In this document: positions 2,063 to 42,865 of the stretch, one piece after another | Numbering within the stretch: position 1 is the first letter of the stretch | How the letters are laid out: the number at the start of each line of letters is the position of its first letter | Assembly (NCBI GenBank): GCA_045535465.1 | Contig: JAZSLS010000100.1 | Coordinates: 559-64,558, forward strand | Length of the DNA: 64,000 nt | Direction: 5' to 3' | Source: Eubacteriales bacterium | GTDB taxonomy: Bacteria > Bacillota > Clostridia > Oscillospirales > CAG-382 | Notes under the pieces: model-generated | Databases searched by the model: none | Told to the model about the DNA's origin: nothing | What the model saw: the letters and a program-made list of their open reading frames with translations, nothing else | Translations under genes and position numbers: made by a program

Positions 2063-3409
<1,347 letters not shown>

Positions 3410-3469
3410 GATTGCGATTGGCAAAAAAGGCACAGACCGCAGAAAAATAATATAATAAGTTATAATGTA

Positions 3470-3503
3470 GGTAAGCGAAGCTTCGGCTTCGCTTACCTTA
3501 TTG
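3470..3503 (+). terminator. stem-loop terminator after gdhA
   Basis: GGTAAGCGAAGC-TTCG-GCTTCGCTTACC is a perfect 12-bp stem (3470-3497) followed by TTATTG. The T tract is weak. Confidence 0.6.
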
Positions 3504-3558
3504 ATATGATTTTAATTTTTACGCTTTGGACAAACCGAACAAAAGTTCGGTAGAGGGC

Positions 3559-3587
3559 TTGATTTTTGGAATATGCCGTGTTATAAT
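3559..3587 (+). promoter_or_regulatory. sigma-A type promoter of the cassette (TTGATT-17-TATAAT)
   Basis: TTGATT at 3559-3564, a 17-nt spacer, TATAAT at 3582-3587; about 80 nt upstream of the ATG at 3666. Confidence 0.65.
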
Positions 3588-3665
3588 AAAAGCGTAAGAG
3601 GGAATATGTTGCGTCACTGCACTTAAAATGCGGTGGCGCTTTTTCTATGCCAAAACGGAGGTAAA

Positions 3666-4934
3666 ATGAAGGAAATACTAATAAGCGTAAACAAAAAAAT
3701 AGCCACAGCGGCAGAAGGGCAGTTTATAGTAAACGGCAACAGCGACGTTGTGGCAAGGTTTGCTTTTGACAGCGAATGGGAAAACAGCGGAACCAAAACC
3801 GCTGTTTTTCTGCTTTCGGACGGCAGCGCCTACTACGAAATAATTAAGGACGGCGTTTGCCCCGTACCCGTTTTGTATAACACCGCCTACGTTAAAATCG
3901 GCGTAATAAGTGCATCCGTGTATACAAGCACTTCGGCAAAGGTTGTCTGCCGCCCTTGCATAACCGACGAAAACGCAGGTGATGCTCCCGTAACGGAGGA
4001 TAACTACGCCAAGCTTTGCACCTATATCGACGAAAAAGCTGCTTCCGTAGAAATAAGTAAAGCGGGCAATTGGCTTATAAACGGCAAGGATACGGGCGTA
4101 TCCGCCAAGGGAGAGAAAGGCGATCGTGGCATACAGGGTCAAAAGGGGGATAAAGGGGACAAGGGCGACAGCTACGTTTTAACGGCTTCCGATAAAGCCG
4201 AGATAGCAAAACAGGTGGAGCACGCAAATATAGTACAAGCGCCAAGGTTTGTAAACTCTATAAACGAAATGACGGACGTTAGCAAATCCTACGTCCTTGC
4301 CTCCACGGGCAGAATTTGGGCGCATTTGGACACAACTGCTATACAAACTGTAACGGAACAGATAGGCGACACGGCTAACCCATTCATAGATAACGCCCGT
4401 TTGGGCTCCGACGGCTCAACCGCCACCGGTTACGACGGATACGTTGCAACGCCGTACATCGACCTCCTTGCCTATCCCGTGCCGTTTACCTTGCATCTTG
4501 AAGGAGCGACCTTTATACCCACCGCAACCGACAGCTACACAAGAATATGCTCTTACACTGCCGGCAAAACAAAAATATCCCAAGGCAACCACACAAACAC
4601 CACCGTAGACAGTTCTCTTAACGTTGGCGACTCCGACGTTACAGTGAATGGCAATACCGCTACAATACTGTTTGACGAAACCCCGAAAACGAACAACGCA
4701 AACAACGACGGTGTGCTTCAGTTTATAAGGTTTTCGGGCAAGGGAAGTGCAGCTACTGCCAAAGCCTACGTTACTTATGAAGCCGAGGTAACGGGCGGCG
4801 GCTGGGTTGATACGGGCACAAGCTACGCACCTGCTTTGACCGAGAACGAGAAAACCGAAATAGCAGAAATGGCAGCAAACATTATAGATGCCGAGCTTCT
4901 TTCTCTTGTAGGCAACGGAGAGGTAACGGTATGA
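3666..4934 (+). CDS. phage tail-fibre-like protein with collagen-like Gly-X-Y repeat
   Basis: I place the start at ATG 3666 (GGAGG 5 nt upstream) rather than the GTG at 3633. GEKGDRGIQGQKGDKGDKGD lies at 4110-4169, preceded by WLINGKDTGVSAKG, a pattern I recognise from Firmicutes prophage fibre proteins. No signal peptide. Confidence 0.75.
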   Translation: MKEILISVNKKIATAAEGQFIVNGNSDVVARFAFDSEWENSGTKTAVFLLSDGSAYYEIIKDGVCPVPVLYNTAYVKIGVISASVYTSTSAKVVCRPCITDENAGDAPVTEDNYAKLCTYIDEKAASVEISKAGNWLINGKDTGVSAKGEKGDRGIQGQKGDKGDKGDSYVLTASDKAEIAKQVEHANIVQAPRFVNSINEMTDVSKSYVLASTGRIWAHLDTTAIQTVTEQIGDTANPFIDNARLGSDGSTATGYDGYVATPYIDLLAYPVPFTLHLEGATFIPTATDSYTRICSYTAGKTKISQGNHTNTTVDSSLNVGDSDVTVNGNTATILFDETPKTNNANNDGVLQFIRFSGKGSAATAKAYVTYEAEVTGGGWVDTGTSYAPALTENEKTEIAEMAANIIDAELLSLVGNGEVTV

Positions 4935-6100
4935 GGCTTGAAAGTGCAAACCTAATAAAAAAGCTTATCTCTGCAATAGATGCCAAAACGGGCTATAAGC
5001 ACTTAGACCTGACCTCTGCTGTGCAAAGCCTTTTTGACGGAGTGGCTATGCCTGTCGGTACGGTTGCGTTGCCCGCAGCAAGCTCATTTCAAAGCCCTCA
5101 AAGCATAAAAGCTCTGATAAACGCCGCAAATACCGTAACGGGCAAGGAGGACAAAACTCTTACCGATGCAGTGCAAAGCCTTTTTGATTTGTATGTGGGT
5201 GAAAAGCCAATCTACTCCTTCGGTGTACTGTCAGATCTGCACATACAGTACGCAACGGGTGTGGAGGATTTAAACAGAGCCTTTGCCTATCTTGAAAAAC
5301 GTGTTCCGTTTACTTGTATTTGCGGCGACCTTGTTGCGTGGGCAAGCGTGGAAAATATGGCGCAATACAAGAGCTTGGTGGTAGATACCCCTTGGGATAT
5401 GGAGATATACGAGGTAGCGGGCAACCACGAAAGCTACCCCGAAATGGGTGTAACAGGCAACGTTAACGAAGCCCTTTATACTCAAAGCACGGGCAACGGC
5501 TTGTATTATTCCTTTGAGAAAAACGGGGATGTATTTATAATGCTAAGTCTTAAGACGGACGTGCCAAGCGTTACTTTCCCAAGCGGAGCGCTGGCTTGGC
5601 TTGAAAACACTCTTAAAGCTAACAAAAACAAGCGTTGCTTTGTTTTTGAACACGTTCAAGATGCAAACGACCTTACGGCAGACCCTTCCCATAGGTACAG
5701 CAATATTCTCGCAGGCGTAGACGGTGACAAATTTTTAAGCCTTATGAGAGAGTATAAAAACGCCGTGTGGTTTCACGGTCATACTCATTTATCTGTCACT
5801 GCCGATAGAAAGGGCGCATATCCCGTAGGTCACGAGGCGGGCTACAAATCCGTTCACGTTCCATCCTTGGTAAGCCCAAGGTATTACAACGCCAATACAA
5901 ACGCCGTTGAGGATTATTACTGCAAAAACGGTGTAACGGTTTACGGCGGTGTACACGCCGAAGGCTACGTCTGCGACGTTTATAAACACAAAATAGTGCT
6001 TCGCTCCATAGATTTTGCAAAGCAATACTTCGACGCAAGCTGGAACGCCTACTACGAAGCGGAGCCGATGGACGAGCATATTTATGCTTTGATAACTTAG
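4931..6100 (+). CDS. calcineurin-like metallophosphoesterase with duplicated N-terminal module
   Basis: ATGA overlap with the upstream gene. Phosphoesterase motifs: DLH, GDLV, GNHE, GHTH. A 50-aa internal duplication (LTSAVQSLFDG / LTDAVQSLFDL). No signal peptide. Confidence 0.8.
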   Translation: MRLESANLIKKLISAIDAKTGYKHLDLTSAVQSLFDGVAMPVGTVALPAASSFQSPQSIKALINAANTVTGKEDKTLTDAVQSLFDLYVGEKPIYSFGVLSDLHIQYATGVEDLNRAFAYLEKRVPFTCICGDLVAWASVENMAQYKSLVVDTPWDMEIYEVAGNHESYPEMGVTGNVNEALYTQSTGNGLYYSFEKNGDVFIMLSLKTDVPSVTFPSGALAWLENTLKANKNKRCFVFEHVQDANDLTADPSHRYSNILAGVDGDKFLSLMREYKNAVWFHGHTHLSVTADRKGAYPVGHEAGYKSVHVPSLVSPRYYNANTNAVEDYYCKNGVTVYGGVHAEGYVCDVYKHKIVLRSIDFAKQYFDASWNAYYEAEPMDEHIYALIT

Positions 6101-6118
6101 AGAAAGGCAAGGAGGAAA

Positions 6119-6565
6119 ATGAAAATACAAACTGTAAAAATAGCAATTTCGGCAGTCTTTGCGGCAATAGCGGGCGTATACGGTAAGCTGGCTGTACCCT
6201 TTTTTGTGCTGTGTGGACTAATGCTTGCCGACTATGTAACCGGTATGACAAAAAGCTGGCAAAGGGGAACTCTTTGCTCTAAAACGGGGCTTATGGGGGT
6301 GGTTAAAAAGCTGTGCTACGGTCTTGGCGTGGTAGCTGCCGCAGGAGTAGACTATGCGGTATCCGCCATATCCCAAAGCCTTGGCTACGACGTGGGGCTT
6401 AAGCCCTTTTTTGCTATGCTTTGCGTTGTGTGGCTTATTATAAACGAGTGCATAAGCATAACGGAAAATCTTGTGCTGATAGGAGTACCAATGCCCGCTT
6501 TTCTTATAAAGGCGGCAAAAAGACTAAAAACAAGCGTGGAGGATATAGGCGATGACGAGGAATAA
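6119..6565 (+). CDS. phage holin (Phage_holin_4_1 / LL-H type)
   Basis: 148 aa with 3-4 TM segments. Motifs ADYVTG and INECISITEN, plus a charged C-terminal tail DIGDDEE. GGAGG RBS. Confidence 0.8.
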   Translation: MKIQTVKIAISAVFAAIAGVYGKLAVPFFVLCGLMLADYVTGMTKSWQRGTLCSKTGLMGVVKKLCYGLGVVAAAGVDYAVSAISQSLGYDVGLKPFFAMLCVVWLIINECISITENLVLIGVPMPAFLIKAAKRLKTSVEDIGDDEE

Positions 6566-7298
6566 GCCCATAAGGATATATATATCACCCGCCAACCATC
6601 CAAAGCCCTACGCAAACGGTAAAAACGAAAAAAGCGTTATGGAAAAGCTGGCGGCGTATCTTTTGGAATTTCTTTCGGAATACGAGGGAATAAAGCCCAT
6701 ATACACCACCGTTTTTAATAAGGACGGTCAATATACGGGCAGACCCGAGGAGGCAAGAAGCTTAGAGTGCGATTTGTACGTGGCGCTCCACAGTAATGCG
6801 GGCGGAGGTAAAGGAGCCTGCCTTTTTTATCACCCTTCTTTTCCATTGTCAAAGGCGTTGGCGTTGGGGATAGTGGGCGAGCTTAACCGTGTAAGTCCCA
6901 TAAAAAGCAACCGTGCCGTTCAGCCTGCCATATATTCGTGGGACAAGGGCGCTTTCAATTTCGGCGAGCTTAGAGTACCCGCATCCTATGGTATAGCTCC
7001 CGTACTTATCGAGCACGAGTTCCACGATACGCCTAAGGGGGCAGCGTGGCTTGCGGAAAATACGCAGGCAATAGCAAAAGCCGATGCCCGTGCCATAGCG
7101 TCAGTACTTGGCGTTTACAAAAAAGGCGACGTTACAGGCGACGGCAAAACCGATAATCTTGATGCTGCTCGTATACTTATGTACGATGCAGGCATTATAG
7201 AGCTTACCGAGGAGCAAAAACGCATAGCCGATATAAATTGCGACGGTGAAGCCGATAACCTTGACGTAAAACAGATATTAAAAATCGACTCAGAATAA
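6552..7298 (+). CDS. N-acetylmuramoyl-L-alanine amidase (Amidase_3) endolysin with C-terminal type-I dockerin
   Basis: Overlaps the holin by 14 nt. Amidase_3 motifs YVALHSNAGGG and LIEHEFHD. The C-terminus has two Ca-binding dockerin loops, GDVTGDGKTDNLDAARIL and ADINCDGEADNLDVKQIL. No signal peptide. Confidence 0.85.
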   Translation: MTRNKPIRIYISPANHPKPYANGKNEKSVMEKLAAYLLEFLSEYEGIKPIYTTVFNKDGQYTGRPEEARSLECDLYVALHSNAGGGKGACLFYHPSFPLSKALALGIVGELNRVSPIKSNRAVQPAIYSWDKGAFNFGELRVPASYGIAPVLIEHEFHDTPKGAAWLAENTQAIAKADARAIASVLGVYKKGDVTGDGKTDNLDAARILMYDAGIIELTEEQKRIADINCDGEADNLDVKQILKIDSE

Positions 7299-7300
7299 CA

Positions 7301-7335
7301 AAACGCCCCGTGGATTTTTCCACGGGGCGTTTTTG
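7301..7335 (+). terminator. rho-independent terminator after the endolysin
   Basis: CGCCCCGTGG-ATTTTT-CCACGGGGCG followed by TTTTTG. Confidence 0.85.
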
Positions 7336-7339
7336 CGCT

Positions 7340-7414
7340 TGGAGCTGGTGAGGGGATTTGAACCCCTGGCCTATTGATTACGAATCAATTGCGCTACCAC
7401 TGCGCCACACCAGC
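7340..7414 (-). tRNA. tRNA-Thr (anticodon CGU)
   Basis: The reverse complement GCTGGTGTGGCGCAGTGGTAGCGCAATTGATTCGTAATCAATAGGCCAGGGGTTCAAATCCCCTCACCAGCTCCA folds as a cloverleaf. Anticodon loop TTCGTAA; CCA is encoded. Confidence 0.95.
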
Positions 7415-7502
7415 AAGTGCCAAAGCTGCGCAAGACGAATTATACCACATAAAACTCCGTTTTGTCAAGCATTTAATTGCCTTTTACCTTTGGTTTTTCG
7501 AC

Positions 7503-7530
7503 ACCCAAAAACAAAAGCTTACATATTATA
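7503..7530 (+). promoter_or_regulatory. possible sigma-K type (mother-cell) promoter upstream of dpaA
   Basis: AC (7503-7504), a 17-nt spacer, CATATTATA (7522-7530), matching AC-N16-17-CATAnnnTA. No good sigma-A -35 element is present. Confidence 0.4.
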
Positions 7531-18649: not shown

Positions 18650-19138
18650 TATATGATAAAAAGCGGCAAAGCGCCGCTTTTCCTACTTAACAAAATAAAA
18701 TGTTGTTTTTTGCGTTGTGAATAGGTGCGTTTTATAAGAGCAAAACAAAAAGCGGAGGGTATGGAGAAGGGAAAATAGGCTCGAATGAACGAACTAAGGC
18801 GCAAACTGTACTAAGTACAGTAAGCCGAAAGTTCGTGCATAGCAAAAAACATATAAATCAGTCAAAAGGAAAAGCGGCAAAGCGCCGCTTTTCCTACTTA
18901 ACAAAATAAAATGTTGTTTTTTGCGTTGTGAATAGGTGCGTTTTATAAGAGCAAAACAAAAAGCGGAGGGTATGGAGAAGGAAAAATAGCATTGAATGTA
19001 CGAACCAAGGCGAAAGCTGTACTAAGTACTGCGAGCCGCAGGTTCGTGCATAGCAAAAAACATATAAATCAGTCAAAAGGAAAAGCGGCAAAGCGCCGCT
19101 TTTCCTACTTAACAAAATAAAATGTTGTTTTTTGCGTT
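18650..19138. repeat. 211-bp tandem direct repeat, 2.3 copies, each carrying a GC hairpin/T-tract and a variable hairpin
   Basis: Equivalent G residues lie at 18663, 18874 and 19085, giving an exact 211-bp period. Copies 1 and 2 are identical over ~140 nt but differ at 13 of 60 positions in 18771-18830 versus 18982-19041. Copy 3 is the first 59 nt only. Confidence 0.95.
19080..19105 (-). terminator. hpt terminator hairpin (also repeated at 18658-18683 and 18869-18894)
   Basis: AAGCGGC-AAAGC-GCCGCTT is flanked by an A run and a T run. On the minus strand it is followed by TTTTCCTTTT. Confidence 0.75.
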
Positions 19139-40069: not shown

Positions 40070-40124
40070 ATAACTTGAGTAAGAATTTAAAGCCCTATTT
40101 GTGTTTATTGAAAGGACAGTAAGG

Positions 40125-41810
40125 ATGCTTATAAATCAACGTTTAAGCCATATATTTAAACTCACCGTCGCAGCTTTTTTGCTTGGCAGTATATTACTTT
40201 TTGCTACTGCCTGCGGTGACGTAAAAGAGATGATTGATATTTTGGAGGGCGGAGAAGACTCCCACACGGTGCCCGAATCATCAGATGAGGCTTCTAAGGA
40301 AACAGAGGATGTTCCCACCGAACGGCCTTATACCGACGCAAGCTTTTTTGAAACCGCTCCTTACGGTGACGGTCTTGGCATAAAGAATTATACGGGCACA
40401 GATTCCTTTGTTAAAATCCCACCTATCATTGACGAAAAACCTGTTTTGCTGATAAACGCAGGCGCAATAAAGGACGTAAAGGGTGAGGACGGAAACCAAA
40501 CGGTTACAATTACCGATGTAGTAGTTCCCAATACTGTGGAACAGATAAGCTTTTCCGCTTTTTCCGAGTGTAAAAGCCTGCAAGCGCTCTCTTTGCCCTT
40601 TGCCGGCGGCAAGGCGGATAACTATAAATACATTGGTTATATCTTTGGTGCGTATTCTACCGCCGCAAACGCTAAGGTGGTTCCCGAAACCTTGACAAGC
40701 GTACAGATAAACGGGGGCGAAATAGGGGACGAAGCCTTTTTGGGTTGTGAAACTCTTACAGAGGTTAAAATGTCGGGCGTTACTGCAGTAGGTAAAAAGG
40801 CGTTTAGCGGTTGCACTGTGCTTGATACCTTGATTATCCCCGATACCGTTACCTCTATCGGAGACGGCGCTTTCGACGGTTGTGACTCTTTAAGGGTTAT
40901 AAGTCTGCCTTTTCTCGGCAACGGCAGTGATAAGCTGTTCTTAGGTGCAACCTTTGGTGCGGAAAATTACGAGGGCAATTTGGAGTATGTTCCTTCCTCT
41001 CTTCGTTCCGTTACCGTCACTTGCCCCGAAAATATTCCCGAAGGTGCTTTTTACGAGTGCAATAAAATAACTGCTCTTACTATCAAAGCCAATTTAAAAA
41101 CTGTTGGCGAAAAGGCCTTTTATCGTTGTAAAAAGCTTAAAACCCTTACCGTCAATGCTGATGATTACAGCGGCATAAATACCCTTTCCCCTTATGCCTT
41201 TGCCTATTGCTCGGCTCTTGGGGAAATAAAGCTGGACGGCAGCATTACTCTCCTTCCCGAAGGCGTATTTTACGGTTGCACTGCTTTGCGTACCGTGCGC
41301 TTTGGCGAAACCGAAAACATTATGCCCTCCACCGTAACAAGCGTTGAAAAAAGCGCTTTTGCGTATTGCGAAAACCTTTTAAATATGGAGCTTTCCACCT
41401 CGCTCGTTGTTGTTGAGGAGCAGGTTTTTTACGGTTGCTCGTACCTTCGCACCGTAAGCATTCCCGCAGGCGTTACCGAGATTAAAAAGGACGCCTTTAA
41501 GGGCTGCGGCACTCTTAAGACCCTTACCGTGGGGGACGGTCTTACTACAATAGGCAGCGGCGCTTTTTCCTACTGTTCGTCGCTTAACGGCGTGGTTTTG
41601 CCTGCCGGTGTTTCCGTTTTGGGCGACTATGCCTTTGCTTACTGCAGCTCTCTTGCGGATTTAAGCATTAAATGTAACGATGCTACCATAGGCACAGGCG
41701 TGTTTAACGGCTGTACCTCCATCGTTGTTAGTGTAAAGCAGGATAGTGGCACCTATTCCGCACTTATAGAAGCAGGGCTTGGCAACAGCAATCTTAAAGC
41801 TCCCGAATAA
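40125..41810 (+). CDS. BspA-type leucine-rich-repeat (LRR_5) surface lipoprotein
   Basis: I place the start at ATG 40125. Lipobox LLFATAC|G. Many ~23-aa repeats of the form I/VxxIGxxAFxxCxxLxxVxIP. Confidence 0.8.
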   Translation: MLINQRLSHIFKLTVAAFLLGSILLFATACGDVKEMIDILEGGEDSHTVPESSDEASKETEDVPTERPYTDASFFETAPYGDGLGIKNYTGTDSFVKIPPIIDEKPVLLINAGAIKDVKGEDGNQTVTITDVVVPNTVEQISFSAFSECKSLQALSLPFAGGKADNYKYIGYIFGAYSTAANAKVVPETLTSVQINGGEIGDEAFLGCETLTEVKMSGVTAVGKKAFSGCTVLDTLIIPDTVTSIGDGAFDGCDSLRVISLPFLGNGSDKLFLGATFGAENYEGNLEYVPSSLRSVTVTCPENIPEGAFYECNKITALTIKANLKTVGEKAFYRCKKLKTLTVNADDYSGINTLSPYAFAYCSALGEIKLDGSITLLPEGVFYGCTALRTVRFGETENIMPSTVTSVEKSAFAYCENLLNMELSTSLVVVEEQVFYGCSYLRTVSIPAGVTEIKKDAFKGCGTLKTLTVGDGLTTIGSGAFSYCSSLNGVVLPAGVSVLGDYAFAYCSSLADLSIKCNDATIGTGVFNGCTSIVVSVKQDSGTYSALIEAGLGNSNLKAPE

Positions 41811-41821
41811 AGGAAAACCAT

Positions 41822-42865
41822 ATGAAAAAAACCTTATGCTTTATAATAGTTTTAGCGCTTATCGTTTTGTCGGCCTGCGGCGGCTCTAATCAAAAGCCTA
41901 CAGAAGACGAAAGCAAGGCGGAAAGTAACGTTCAAAGCGGCCGGGTGGACGAAAGCCTTGATGCTTCTGTGAACGATTACAGCGATTTTGATGAGGAAAG
42001 CGCCTTCCTGAGCGTTGATGAAAGCTCAGAAGAAAAGCTTGAAGTAATAACCAGCGGTGACTACGGCTATGTTTTGGTTAACACCGTTGCAATGATTTGC
42101 GCCTACAGCGGCACCGAAGCAGAGCTTGAATTGCCTTCCGAGCTGGACGGCTACACCGTTACGGCGATTATGGACGATGCTTTTTCGGGCAACGGCTCTC
42201 TTAAAAGGCTTAGTCTTTCCGACACGGTGGTAAACGTTAGCGAAGGTGCTTTTGCAGAGTGTACCGCTCTTGAGTACGTTTACGTAGGCAGCAGTGTTGC
42301 GGTTATGGACTCTGCGGCATTTGCAGGGTGCGTTTCTCTGAAGGAGATAGAGGTCTCTGCTTCCAATAAAAGCTTTTCTTCGGCAGAGGGCGTGCTGTAT
42401 AATGGGGACAAGAGCGAGCTTATTCGTTGCCCTCAAGCTACCGAAGTGGAGGAGCTTGAAATAGCCGACACTGTACTTCTTATAAAAGCAAACGCCTTTG
42501 CCTCCTGCAAGGGGCTTAAGAAGGTGGTGCTTCCCGTCGGTTGTCAGCTTGAGGAAAAAGCCTTTTTTCACTGTATGGACCTTAGCGAGATAGAATTTGG
42601 CGAAGGCCTTGAGGCGATACCCGCAAAAAGCTTTTTCGGTTGTGTTATGTTGGAGGAAATAAACGTTCCTATGGGCGTAAAAATTATAGGCGACTACGCA
42701 TTTTTCGGCTGCATCAGCGTTAAAAGTGCGGCTTTGCCCGAAACTGTTGAGGAGATAGGAGAGCACGTTTTTAAATCCTGCTCGGCGCTTAAGGAGATAA
42801 AAGCCGAAGGCGAATACTGTAAAAGCTGGTACGCTGACCACGGCAAGAACTATATTAACACTTGA
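41822..42865 (+). CDS. BspA-type leucine-rich-repeat (LRR_5) surface lipoprotein, paralog
   Basis: Lipobox LIVLSAC|G. Acidic linker, then the same AFxxCxxL repeat pattern. Confidence 0.8.
   Translation: MKKTLCFIIVLALIVLSACGGSNQKPTEDESKAESNVQSGRVDESLDASVNDYSDFDEESAFLSVDESSEEKLEVITSGDYGYVLVNTVAMICAYSGTEAELELPSELDGYTVTAIMDDAFSGNGSLKRLSLSDTVVNVSEGAFAECTALEYVYVGSSVAVMDSAAFAGCVSLKEIEVSASNKSFSSAEGVLYNGDKSELIRCPQATEVEELEIADTVLLIKANAFASCKGLKKVVLPVGCQLEEKAFFHCMDLSEIEFGEGLEAIPAKSFFGCVMLEEINVPMGVKIIGDYAFFGCISVKSAALPETVEEIGEHVFKSCSALKEIKAEGEYCKSWYADHGKNYINT

Follow-up and report, generated by a model that had tools for sequence, protein, structure and literature searches.

A four-gene phage fibre and lysis cassette, very probably domesticated, kept beside tRNA-Thr(CGU) and dpaAB in uncultured Clostridia

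Why do four genes of the kind that close a phage late operon stand by themselves in a bacterial chromosome, between gdhA and a tRNA-Thr(CGU) gene? The question is raised by a stretch of 64,000 nucleotides from an Eubacteriales bacterium (contig JAZSLS010000100.1 of assembly GCA_045535465.1, positions 559 to 64,558), hereafter the window, which carries at 3666-7298 a cassette encoding a fibre-like protein, a metallophosphodiesterase, a holin and an amidase. An earlier note, made from the letters alone, had left open whether this was a deletion remnant or a domesticated module. Our analysis upheld both phage origin and domestication, but not a decaying remnant: the cassette is very probably domesticated and selectively retained. 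As to its role, we tentatively favour an ancient prophage fragment turned host module, gated by the SOS response, which would release a fibre-phosphodiesterase cargo.

The four open reading frames (ORFs) all lie on the forward strand. The fibre-like gene (3666-4934; ATG start, 422 aa) follows a GGAGG ribosome-binding site (3657-3661) and overlaps the metallophosphodiesterase gene (4931-6100; 389 aa) by ATGA at 4931-4934. After an 18-nt gap containing an AGGAGG ribosome-binding site comes the holin gene (6119-6565; 148 aa), which shares 14 nt with the amidase gene (6552-7298; 248 aa). An intrinsic terminator at 7300-7333, a perfect 15-bp stem set between an A-run and a T-run, can act in both directions and is common to the cassette and the convergent tRNA-Thr(CGU) gene (7340-7414, reverse strand, 3' end at 7340), beyond which lie dpaA and dpaB. 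On the left, gdhA (96% identity to an orthologue with ELFV_dehydrog domains) is followed by a hairpin of its own, read from the sequence at about 3466-3500. The earlier note had described the ORFs and their junctions, the terminators, the tRNA 3' end and a TTGATT-17-TATAAT promoter at 3559-3587, and was right in each particular.

It had also stated that no other phage genes occur in the window, which agrees with our Pfam scan of the 41 larger ORFs: only housekeeping functions were found, and no integrase was among them. Tail, baseplate, capsid and tape-measure genes were likewise absent from these ORFs, as well as from the flanks of two related loci described below (L015 and L018). The guanine-plus-cytosine (GC) content of the cassette equals that of its flanks. 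There is no immunity gene, and no room for one, since 3666-7298 holds no spare ORF or intergenic space. The suggestion that the tRNA gene marks an integration site fared less well. The abutment itself is conserved between lineages, but a search for an attachment (att)-like repeat of the tRNA 3' end flanking the cassette found none; because of this, and because the genes next to the tRNA encode lysis proteins and not an integrase, the abutment is not demonstrable as an integration scar.

The phage ancestry of the cassette was apparent from prophages and phage tail modules. In L011/L012, the gene order is tape measure, Dit, Prophage_tail, GH25, BppU_N, a fibre homologue (55% identity over the C-terminal 65%), Metallophos, XhlA, holin and Amidase_3, followed by host genes. 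The siphophage tail modules L013 and L014 encode a full-length fibre homologue, including its N-terminal domain, after the tail-tip genes (tape-measure, Dit, Tal), and this gene is coupled to Y_phosphatase3 or Metallophos. A phosphodiesterase gene stands 3' of a collagen-like fibre gene in phage-like contigs of about 41 kb (L002-L005), and the prophage-like block L017 terminates in a holin_4_1 and amidase-dockerin pair. The statement that fibre, holin and Amidase_3 endolysin are the last genes of Firmicutes siphophage late operons was thus borne out in L011/L012, L013, L014 and L017. Since the order fibre, Metallophos, holin, amidase ends complete prophage tail modules, the phage origin of the cassette is clear, and gene order and protein families together make it almost certain. 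These blocks from uncultured Clostridia resemble the cassette in order, coupling and protein families, with identities to the window proteins of 55-59% for the fibre C-terminal domain and 50-56% for the phosphodiesterase. Unlike them, the cassette has no upstream tail genes, possesses its own promoter, operator and leader, and is inherited with the chromosome. Direct searches of phage collections gave little. With tblastn against GenBank phages, the amidase had one weak match (27% identity), and the fibre and phosphodiesterase had none. No amidase relatives were found in IMG/VR (single protein and profile) or in the JGI metagenomes (profile), a weak negative because the search used short exact patterns. 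Two of the phage-like contigs of 41 kb (L002 and L003) also encode, beside the fibre genes, a 2808-aa ART-PolyVal protein and a GDSL lipase.

Homologous loci in bacterial chromosomes were reached via homologues of the cassette proteins; an exact look-up of the window phosphodiesterase in the contig index returned no match, and a contig scan with DpaA as the query returned two loci, with L006 cut inside the holin gene. In L001 (GCA_045630105.1), all four genes are present and are followed by tRNA-Thr, dpaA, dpaB, a Clp protease gene and L21. A second lineage, represented by a goat-caecum metagenome-assembled genome (L006) and a 92-kb contig (L015/L016), has the order G5/M23, gdhA, cargo, holin, amidase, tRNA-Thr, dpaAB. 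In a third, L018/L019 (19 contigs), the left flank is different, and cargo, holin, amidase, tRNA-Thr and dpaAB still follow one another. The order cassette, tRNA-Thr, dpaAB is therefore kept in at least three lineages besides that of the window, each time between housekeeping flanks. L008 (GCA_045537905.1) carries the four genes on a 7-kb contig with repeats at its ends. The comparison of the gdhA to tRNA-Thr interval across relatives, which the earlier note had called for, thus showed the cassette to be fixed, with no full prophage at the site in the lineages compared.

Selection was estimated between the window and L001 as the ratio of nonsynonymous to synonymous substitution rates (dN/dS). 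Values were 0.115 for the fibre (dS 0.63), 0.139 for the phosphodiesterase (dS 0.78), 0.115 for the holin (dS 1.06) and 0.083 for the amidase (second estimate 0.095; dS 0.90), compared with 0.098 for dpaA (dS 1.05) and 0.070 for dpaB (dS 0.80). The cassette is hence under purifying selection (0.08-0.14), and its dS range (0.63-1.06) matches that of dpaAB (0.80-1.05), as anticipated by the view that these genes are retained under selection. Identity of the lysis proteins to those of the window falls in step with that of DpaA, from L001 (amidase 0.88, holin 0.79, DpaA 0.84) through L015 (0.72, 0.70 and 0.75, respectively) to L018 (0.62, 0.52 and 0.56). The matched dS, the co-divergence with DpaA, the GC match and the lack of an att repeat point to a single ancient capture, after which the cassette was inherited vertically under purifying selection.

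The first cargo protein, encoded by ORF1, had only weak Pfam matches, all of them on its collagen run; it is synteny and fold that justify the label "tail fibre". Searching the PDB by sequence with the cassette proteins gave nothing useful, so folds were compared instead. The ORF1 model consists of a confident beta-sandwich (residues 1-98), a disordered collagen stretch and a second confident beta-sandwich (190-390). Its best PDB matches were chains of 4v96, a 1.8-MDa phage genome-injection device (E 2e-4, with low template-modelling (TM) scores), followed by the baseplate of phage NF5. We take 4v96 to be the TP901-1 baseplate and the matched chains to be BppU. Pfam BppU_N did not match ORF1, nor did the N-terminal domain of ORF1 resemble in sequence the BppU_N protein that prophage L011 encodes separately. 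The distal domain showed weak matches to carbohydrate-binding module (CBM)/ConA-like folds. Among viral models in BFVD, ORF1 had 71 fold matches, most of them from uncultured gut siphoviruses; several were fused to GDSL lipase or calcineurin-like phosphoesterase domains. The collagen run comprises 7 GXY triplets in the window (4107-4127 region), 16 in L001 and none in L008, which marks it as a dispensable spacer of variable length.

The second cargo protein, ORF2, matched Metallophos (PF00149, E 5.9e-11). Its metal-binding motifs, the full set of the calcineurin-like superfamily (DxH, GD, GNHE, H and GHxH), are invariant across 57 homologues, and D102, H104, D133, N165, H166, H241, H282 and H284 are invariant or nearly so. 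The first 90 or so residues form two helical repeats. With a predicted local distance difference test (pLDDT) score of 92, the model was matched by Foldseek to 2zo9, 3d03 and Rv0805 (E 1e-11 to 1e-9), the best matches being the glycerophosphodiesterase GpdQ and the phosphodiesterase Rv0805. ORF2 is accordingly modelled as a GpdQ/Rv0805-like metallophosphodiesterase with an intact active site, and its GpdQ-like fold is not a known toxin fold. Virion-borne enzymes that degrade teichoic acid include gp12 of phi29 and the baseplate glycerophosphodiesterase of Ld17, as given in the reference list of PMC6116005. They are precedents for a phosphodiesterase acting on teichoic acid. Some ORF2 homologues (P0096-P0102) carry dockerins.

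Neither ORF1 nor ORF2 has an N-terminal hydrophobic signal, as judged by eye from the translations. Their ATGA coupling also occurs in phages; in L015, fibre and Metallophos are fused into a single 762-aa protein, as they are in some BFVD viral proteins, and many homologues of the fibre C-terminal domain bear a fused Y_phosphatase3 domain. Across these sequences, fibre and phosphatase are always coupled and appear as a functional pair. The N-terminal part of ORF1 (about 125 residues) is kept in every lineage, with 91% identity in L001, 63% in L008, 60% in L018 and 44% in L015. The distal cargo is more variable: collagen repeats, a CBM-like domain and a separate phosphodiesterase in the window and L001; no collagen in L008; another middle domain fused to a divergent Metallophos in L015; and a 265-aa protein plus an unrelated 191-aa protein in L018. 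The distal fibre domain and phosphodiesterase of the window share more identity with their phage counterparts (50-59%) than with the cargo carried by sister cassettes (29-42%). As seen in these alignments, distal cargo is swapped between lineages while the anchor and the lysis genes are kept, which is the pattern of receptor-binding-protein evolution.

Among the lysis proteins, ORF3 belongs to Phage_holin_4_1 (PF05105, E 2.7e-27). A sequence taken to be that of the C. difficile holin TcdE is also in PF05105 and can be aligned locally with ORF3. ORF4, an N-acetylmuramoyl-L-alanine amidase, combines Amidase_3 (E 9e-12) with Dockerin_1 (E 5e-7); its C-terminus is a bona fide two-repeat type I dockerin that takes the place of the usual wall-binding domain. 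H16, E26, H80 and the E154-H158 block show little or no variation across 36 family members. The same architecture, Amidase_3 with a C-terminal dockerin in about 250 aa, was found in about 70 clusters (P0223-P0292).

The control region was examined by aligning the upstream sequences of five lineages (window, L001, L008, L015 and L018). A LexA-type (Cheo-box) palindrome, CGAACAAAAGTTCG, is located at 3536-3549, 9 bp 5' of the -35 element. It fits exactly the Firmicutes LexA operator consensus GAACN4GTTC (PMC4234289) and is the sole match with up to one mismatch in the window, where about 0.06 exact matches are expected per 64 kb. The palindrome core and its 9-bp spacing to the -35 element are the same in the window, L001, L008 and L015, with the variant CGAACTTTTGTTCG in L015 and a right half-site GTTCT in L008. 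The possibility that the palindrome is a copy of a repetitive extragenic palindromic (REP)-like element found elsewhere in the window was rejected, because it does not contain the core of that element and stands at a fixed distance from the -35 element. Neither the window nor the short related loci contain a core SOS gene such as recA, lexA or uvrB.

The promoter, TTGATT-17-(TG)TTATAAT on the forward strand (3559-3587), is of the sigma-A type, with 10 of the 12 consensus positions and a TG extension. Promoter-like matches in the region numbered 9 against 5.1 expected, so that such a match alone is at chance level. Its weight comes from the conservation, in five diverged lineages, of the -35 element, the TG-TATAATAAA element and the motif that follows: TTGA of the -35 element and TGnTATAATAAA are invariant in all five. 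At the predicted transcript start lies the motif GTAAGAGGGAATA (3594-3606, forward strand). Within it, GTAAGAGGG(A/T)AAT is invariant in the window, L001, L008, L015 and L018, including the lineage that has neither operator nor hairpin, and GTAAGAGGG occurs as one exact copy in the window against 0.08 copies expected with up to one mismatch. The motif, which resembles a Shine-Dalgarno sequence (GAGG), stands where the mRNA is predicted to begin and may serve to stabilise its 5' end or to bind a regulator. GGGAATA was also considered as a sigma-H element; no AGGA stands at the -35 position and L018 does not retain the motif, so this reading was discarded.

Between the promoter and the ribosome-binding site, at 3611-3646 on the forward strand, an 11-pair hairpin (3611-3639) followed by TTTTTC has the form of a terminator. 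The leader folds with -21.5 to -23 kcal/mol (z = -3.6 against shuffled controls) and scores as an intrinsic terminator. In L001 and L008 the stem is kept through changed bases, and in L015 the sequence is unrelated, again with a hairpin and U7. The putative attenuator is conserved as a structure, not as a sequence, in four of the five lineages, and is a predicted terminator. Ahead of it, about 12-17 nt past the predicted start, a -10-like TANNNT element (3605-3610; TATGTT, TACGTT, TAGGCT) is found in the window, L001 and L008. Such elements recall the sigma-dependent pause sites of lambdoid late promoters.

A search of Rfam with the leader and the GTAAGAGGG motif gave no family. The leader/promoter motif TATAATAAAANNGTAAGAGGGAATA, searched with the -10 element attached, was absent from IMG/VR and JGI contigs, and among the prophage loci inspected no fibre gene was preceded by such a promoter. 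It therefore appears that the control region is a property of the host cassette and not of phages. The promoter had been called housekeeping-type; sigma-A-type it is, but not simply housekeeping, given the LexA-type box and, in four of the five lineages, the leader terminator. On balance, these sequences lead us to think it somewhat probable that the cassette is under LexA/SOS control.

We tentatively propose the following sequence of events. The last block of a siphophage late operon was very probably captured under its own promoter. Uncultured gut and rumen Clostridia of a spore-forming clade have since inherited it vertically beside tRNA-Thr(CGU)-dpaAB, where purifying selection keeps it. 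As long as the DNA is undamaged, a LexA-type repressor would sit on the CGAAC-N4-GTTCG box 5' of the strong sigma-A promoter, and the leader terminator would halt most transcripts that escape repression. DNA damage would relieve the repression, and the four coupled genes would be expressed. The holin would then open the membrane and the amidase-dockerin would cut the wall of the producer, probably in a subpopulation of cells, setting free a fibre-phosphodiesterase complex that has no signal peptide. Once released, this complex would bind and hydrolyse a phosphodiester-linked surface glycopolymer of the teichoic-acid type on other cells. We hold it plausible, though somewhat less likely than not, that the function of the cassette is such lysis-mediated cargo release.

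Several observations weigh against this reading. Upstream of the L018 cassette, TTGACA-17-TGgTATAAT and the GTAAGAGGG motif are present with neither palindrome nor leader hairpin, so that SOS gating is not universal and expression of holin and amidase is evidently tolerated there; this arrangement would fit a non-lytic or otherwise controlled role. In the window, the LexA-type box is found at about -58 to -45, 5' of the -35 element and not over it, and the L015 box forms part of a larger palindrome, which might also serve as the terminator of gdhA. With no immunity gene and a phosphodiesterase that is not obviously toxic, a bacteriocin label is weak. The lysis genes of prophage L017 are as close to those of the window (amidase 62%, holin 63%) as are those of L018, and at that depth there may have been exchange of lysis genes with phages instead of strict vertical descent. 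Finally, the comparison covers four or five lineages, and all the genomes compared are metagenome assemblies.

The first alternative is a non-lytic export resembling type 10 secretion, in which the holin admits the amidase to the wall, the peptidoglycan is opened locally and the cargo leaves living cells. We consider this unlikely, though it deserves serious attention. Cargo judged to have no signal peptides shares a transcript with a holin and a wall hydrolase; PF05105 is the family matched by both this holin and TcdE; and TcdE-dependent toxin release is reported to occur without bulk lysis (PMC12150058). The consensus promoter of L018, with neither operator nor attenuator, argues that expression is not automatically lethal, and the dockerin could anchor exported amidase on a surface cohesin. 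However, both lysis proteins are of the ordinary phage type, full length and intact in their catalytic residues, and they recur as a pair at the end of the L017 prophage; four of the five lineages have an operator and a terminator, as for an operon that is dangerous to express; and lysis of a subpopulation has been described for the Yersinia type 10 secretion system (T10SS; PMC10847048) and proposed for TcdE (PMC12485765).

A rather less probable reading is that the cassette is one dispersed locus, for fibre and lysis, of a domesticated phage-like particle whose other genes lie elsewhere in the genome, such as a gene transfer agent, a tailocin or a PBSX-like element, or that it supplies resident prophages with an alternative fibre in trans. 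The conserved N-terminal domain of the cargo (60% in L018, 63% in L008, 44% in L015) with its swapped distal domain is what this reading would lead one to expect: the N-terminal domain is the baseplate end in phages, and the pattern is that of a receptor-binding protein docking on a conserved partner. The fold match of this domain to 4v96 chains (which we take to be BppU) points the same way, and SOS-type control with release by holin and endolysin is typical of tailocins and PBSX. In RcGTA, fibre and lysis genes also occupy separate loci. Yet neither the larger ORFs of the 64-kb window nor the regions flanking the L015 and L018 cassettes include a tail, baseplate or capsid gene, and the N-terminal domain could be a mere trimerisation module.

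Still less probable, in our estimate, is a tail-less "fibre-ocin" or receptor-stripping device, for which a clade of gut Clostridia would have retained, from a phage, just the receptor-binding fibre, its receptor-cleaving phosphodiesterase and the lysis pair. Damaged or infected cells that burst upon SOS induction would free a complex that binds and cleaves the teichoic-acid-type polymer of their neighbours. If this were true, competitors would be harmed, or kin would be stripped of a phage receptor, resulting in protection at the level of the community, and the swapping of distal cargo would reflect an arms race over surface glycopolymers.

A role in sporulation, with lysis of the mother cell by holin and amidase and a BclA-like place on the spore surface for the collagen-bearing fibre, is very improbable. 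It would account for the linkage to dpaA and dpaB in every lineage, even where the left flank is different, and it sits well with the variable number of collagen triplets (7, 16 and 0), the cargo devoid of signal peptides and the sigma-K-like look, by eye, of the dpaA promoter. But the cassette promoter is a near-consensus sigma-A promoter with an extended -10, not a sigma-E or sigma-K promoter; a tRNA gene and a bidirectional terminator lie between the cassette and dpaA; L008 has no collagen run; and the fibre homologues are phage tail proteins.

We give scarcely any credence to an anti-phage trap, in which a constitutive promoter is stopped in the leader until the late antiterminator or activator of an infecting phage causes read-through and premature lysis (abortive infection). 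The strong promoter, the TANNNT element at 3605-3610 and the terminator before late-type genes do recall the lambdoid PR'-tR' arrangement, a likeness taken only as a lead; against it, PADLOC models matched none of the four proteins, selection on the fibre and phosphodiesterase is left unexplained, L018 has no terminator and there is no known antiterminator partner. Equally implausible is a plain prophage remnant in neutral decay, for which clear phage ancestry, the adjoining tRNA gene and the varying cargo could be cited, but which is contradicted by the integrity of all four ORFs throughout the lineages seen, where dN/dS is 0.08-0.14 for dS values of 0.6-1.1 and beyond, by a non-coding control region kept across lineages with saturated synonymous sites, and by a GC content fully matched to the host with no integrase and no att repeat.

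The preferred reading, SOS-gated release of cargo by lysis, can be set beside known systems. In Y. entomophaga, cargo is released by lysis of specialised cells via a phage lysis cassette (PMC10847048); TcdE-dependent release takes place in a subpopulation, with lysis proposed (PMC12485765, PMC12150058, PMC4885068); and hosts use retained prophage holin and endolysin genes, for example in vesicle formation under stress (PMC7918800, PMC7755613). The pathogenicity locus (PaLoc) of C. difficile, with tcdE, the endolysin remnant tcdL and toxin cargo, is likewise from a Firmicute, of phage origin and endowed with a PF05105 holin, a wall-hydrolase gene beside it and signal-peptide-less cargo genes in the same locus. 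In contrast to the PaLoc, the cassette has a full-length endolysin with intact catalytic residues and a dockerin; its cargo is the phage's own fibre and phosphodiesterase, with no toxin; it has no gene for a TcdR-type sigma factor, its apparent control being the LexA-type box and leader terminator; and its four genes form one translationally coupled operon.

The T10SS of Gram-negative bacteria (Serratia ChiWXYZ, the Tc cassette of Y. entomophaga, Salmonella TtsA) similarly consist of a stand-alone holin and hydrolase beside signal-peptide-less cargo. The host of our cassette, however, is monoderm and so lacks both spanin and outer membrane. The cassette hydrolase is an Amidase_3 that bears a dockerin, the cargo derives from a phage tail, and secretion is a putative function. 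SOS bacteriocin operons (colicins and the UV-inducible uviAB-bcn of C. perfringens BCN5) share a LexA-type operator and the union of cargo and release functions in one transcription unit; a terminator limits the lethal part and the cargo has a surface-recognising domain. The cassette differs in having no immunity gene or recognisable toxin domain, in relying on a phage holin and endolysin instead of a lysis lipoprotein, and in placing its terminator ahead of all genes and not only before the lysis gene. Phage lysis genes kept in the chromosome and used by the host are also known from essD-ybcS-rzpD of E. coli DLP12 and xhlAB-xlyA of B. subtilis PBSX. Whereas those modules lie within larger defective prophages, the cassette has only four genes, its own promoter and a fibre-enzyme pair, and it occupies one locus across lineages whose DpaA proteins are only 56% identical.

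In the cassette, holin and hydrolase genes are adjacent outside a functional prophage (14-nt overlap, no other phage genes among the larger ORFs of the 64 kb). By analogy, its working would resemble that of the PaLoc/T10SS class and of SOS bacteriocin operons. It does not have the features of a decaying prophage or, within the available sequence, those of a tailocin. What appears to be new, from the loci compared, is a minimal, vertically inherited operon of phage fibre-enzyme and lysis genes with its own conserved control region in uncultured Clostridia.

Some features of the surroundings were also recorded. The tRNA-Thr(CGU) gene has a promoter at 7439-7468 (reverse strand) that matches all 12 consensus positions (TTGACA-18-TATAAT) with a TG extension, and it is equally perfect in L015 and L018. 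At 7503-7530, 5' of dpaA, AC-17-CATATTATA has by eye the look of a sigma-K-type promoter, as fits a spoVF-like operon. Functions named by Pfam in the window comprise an M23/G5 peptidase, Obg, aconitase, RF, ParB, polysaccharide synthesis, BioY/BirA, the dcw cluster through ftsZ, PFOR and LarA; the names dpaAB, Clp protease and L21/Prp/L27 were taken from the Pfam labels of orthologues. Antisense to gdhA, and longer than it, is a 450-aa ORF (2081-3433, reverse strand); long antisense ORFs are common in the window, so that choosing genes by ORF length alone would take the wrong strand.

In L001, the closest relative, the gdhA-terminator region is tandemly duplicated (about 190 bp, within 1-1370), and a gene for an HTH_3 regulator (reverse strand) and one for a 201-aa lipoprotein stand between this duplication and the cassette promoter; the window has no such insertion. 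The REP-like palindrome mentioned above (about 48 bp, ACGAACC..GGC..GTACTAAGTAC..GCC..GGTTCGT) was observed at 19000-19047 in the window, at 77-125 and 274-322 in L001, and at 51-99 and 7030-7076 in L008. The ends of the L008 contig are mutual inverted repeats of about 110 bp with this element inside, which is probably why the assembly broke there. Two neighbouring BspA-type LRR_5 lipoproteins (569 and 347 aa) are encoded at 40101-42865, directly after ftsZ. LRR_5 proteins are also encoded 3' of the fibre genes in the phage-like L005 and L017, with unrelated N-termini. An N-terminal repeat shared between the window LRR_5 proteins and the phosphodiesterase was considered, and on comparison is not shared.

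Reuse of phage holins and endolysins for protein release is an active topic, with type 10 secretion and TcdE as its focus. To our knowledge, Gram-positive examples are few, and their origins have been deduced from badly eroded loci. The cassette is an unusually clean and complete case, in which the source phage block is still recognisable, a single chromosomal site has been kept, and selection on all four genes is as strong as on the neighbouring sporulation genes. The locus also documents a large endolysin family, of about 70 clusters, with a dockerin where a wall-binding domain is usual. Its conserved control region (LexA-type box, extended -10, GTAAGAGGG and leader terminator) would predict when the cassette fires, and the whole may serve as a natural example of how phage lysis cassettes become release systems of Gram-positive hosts.

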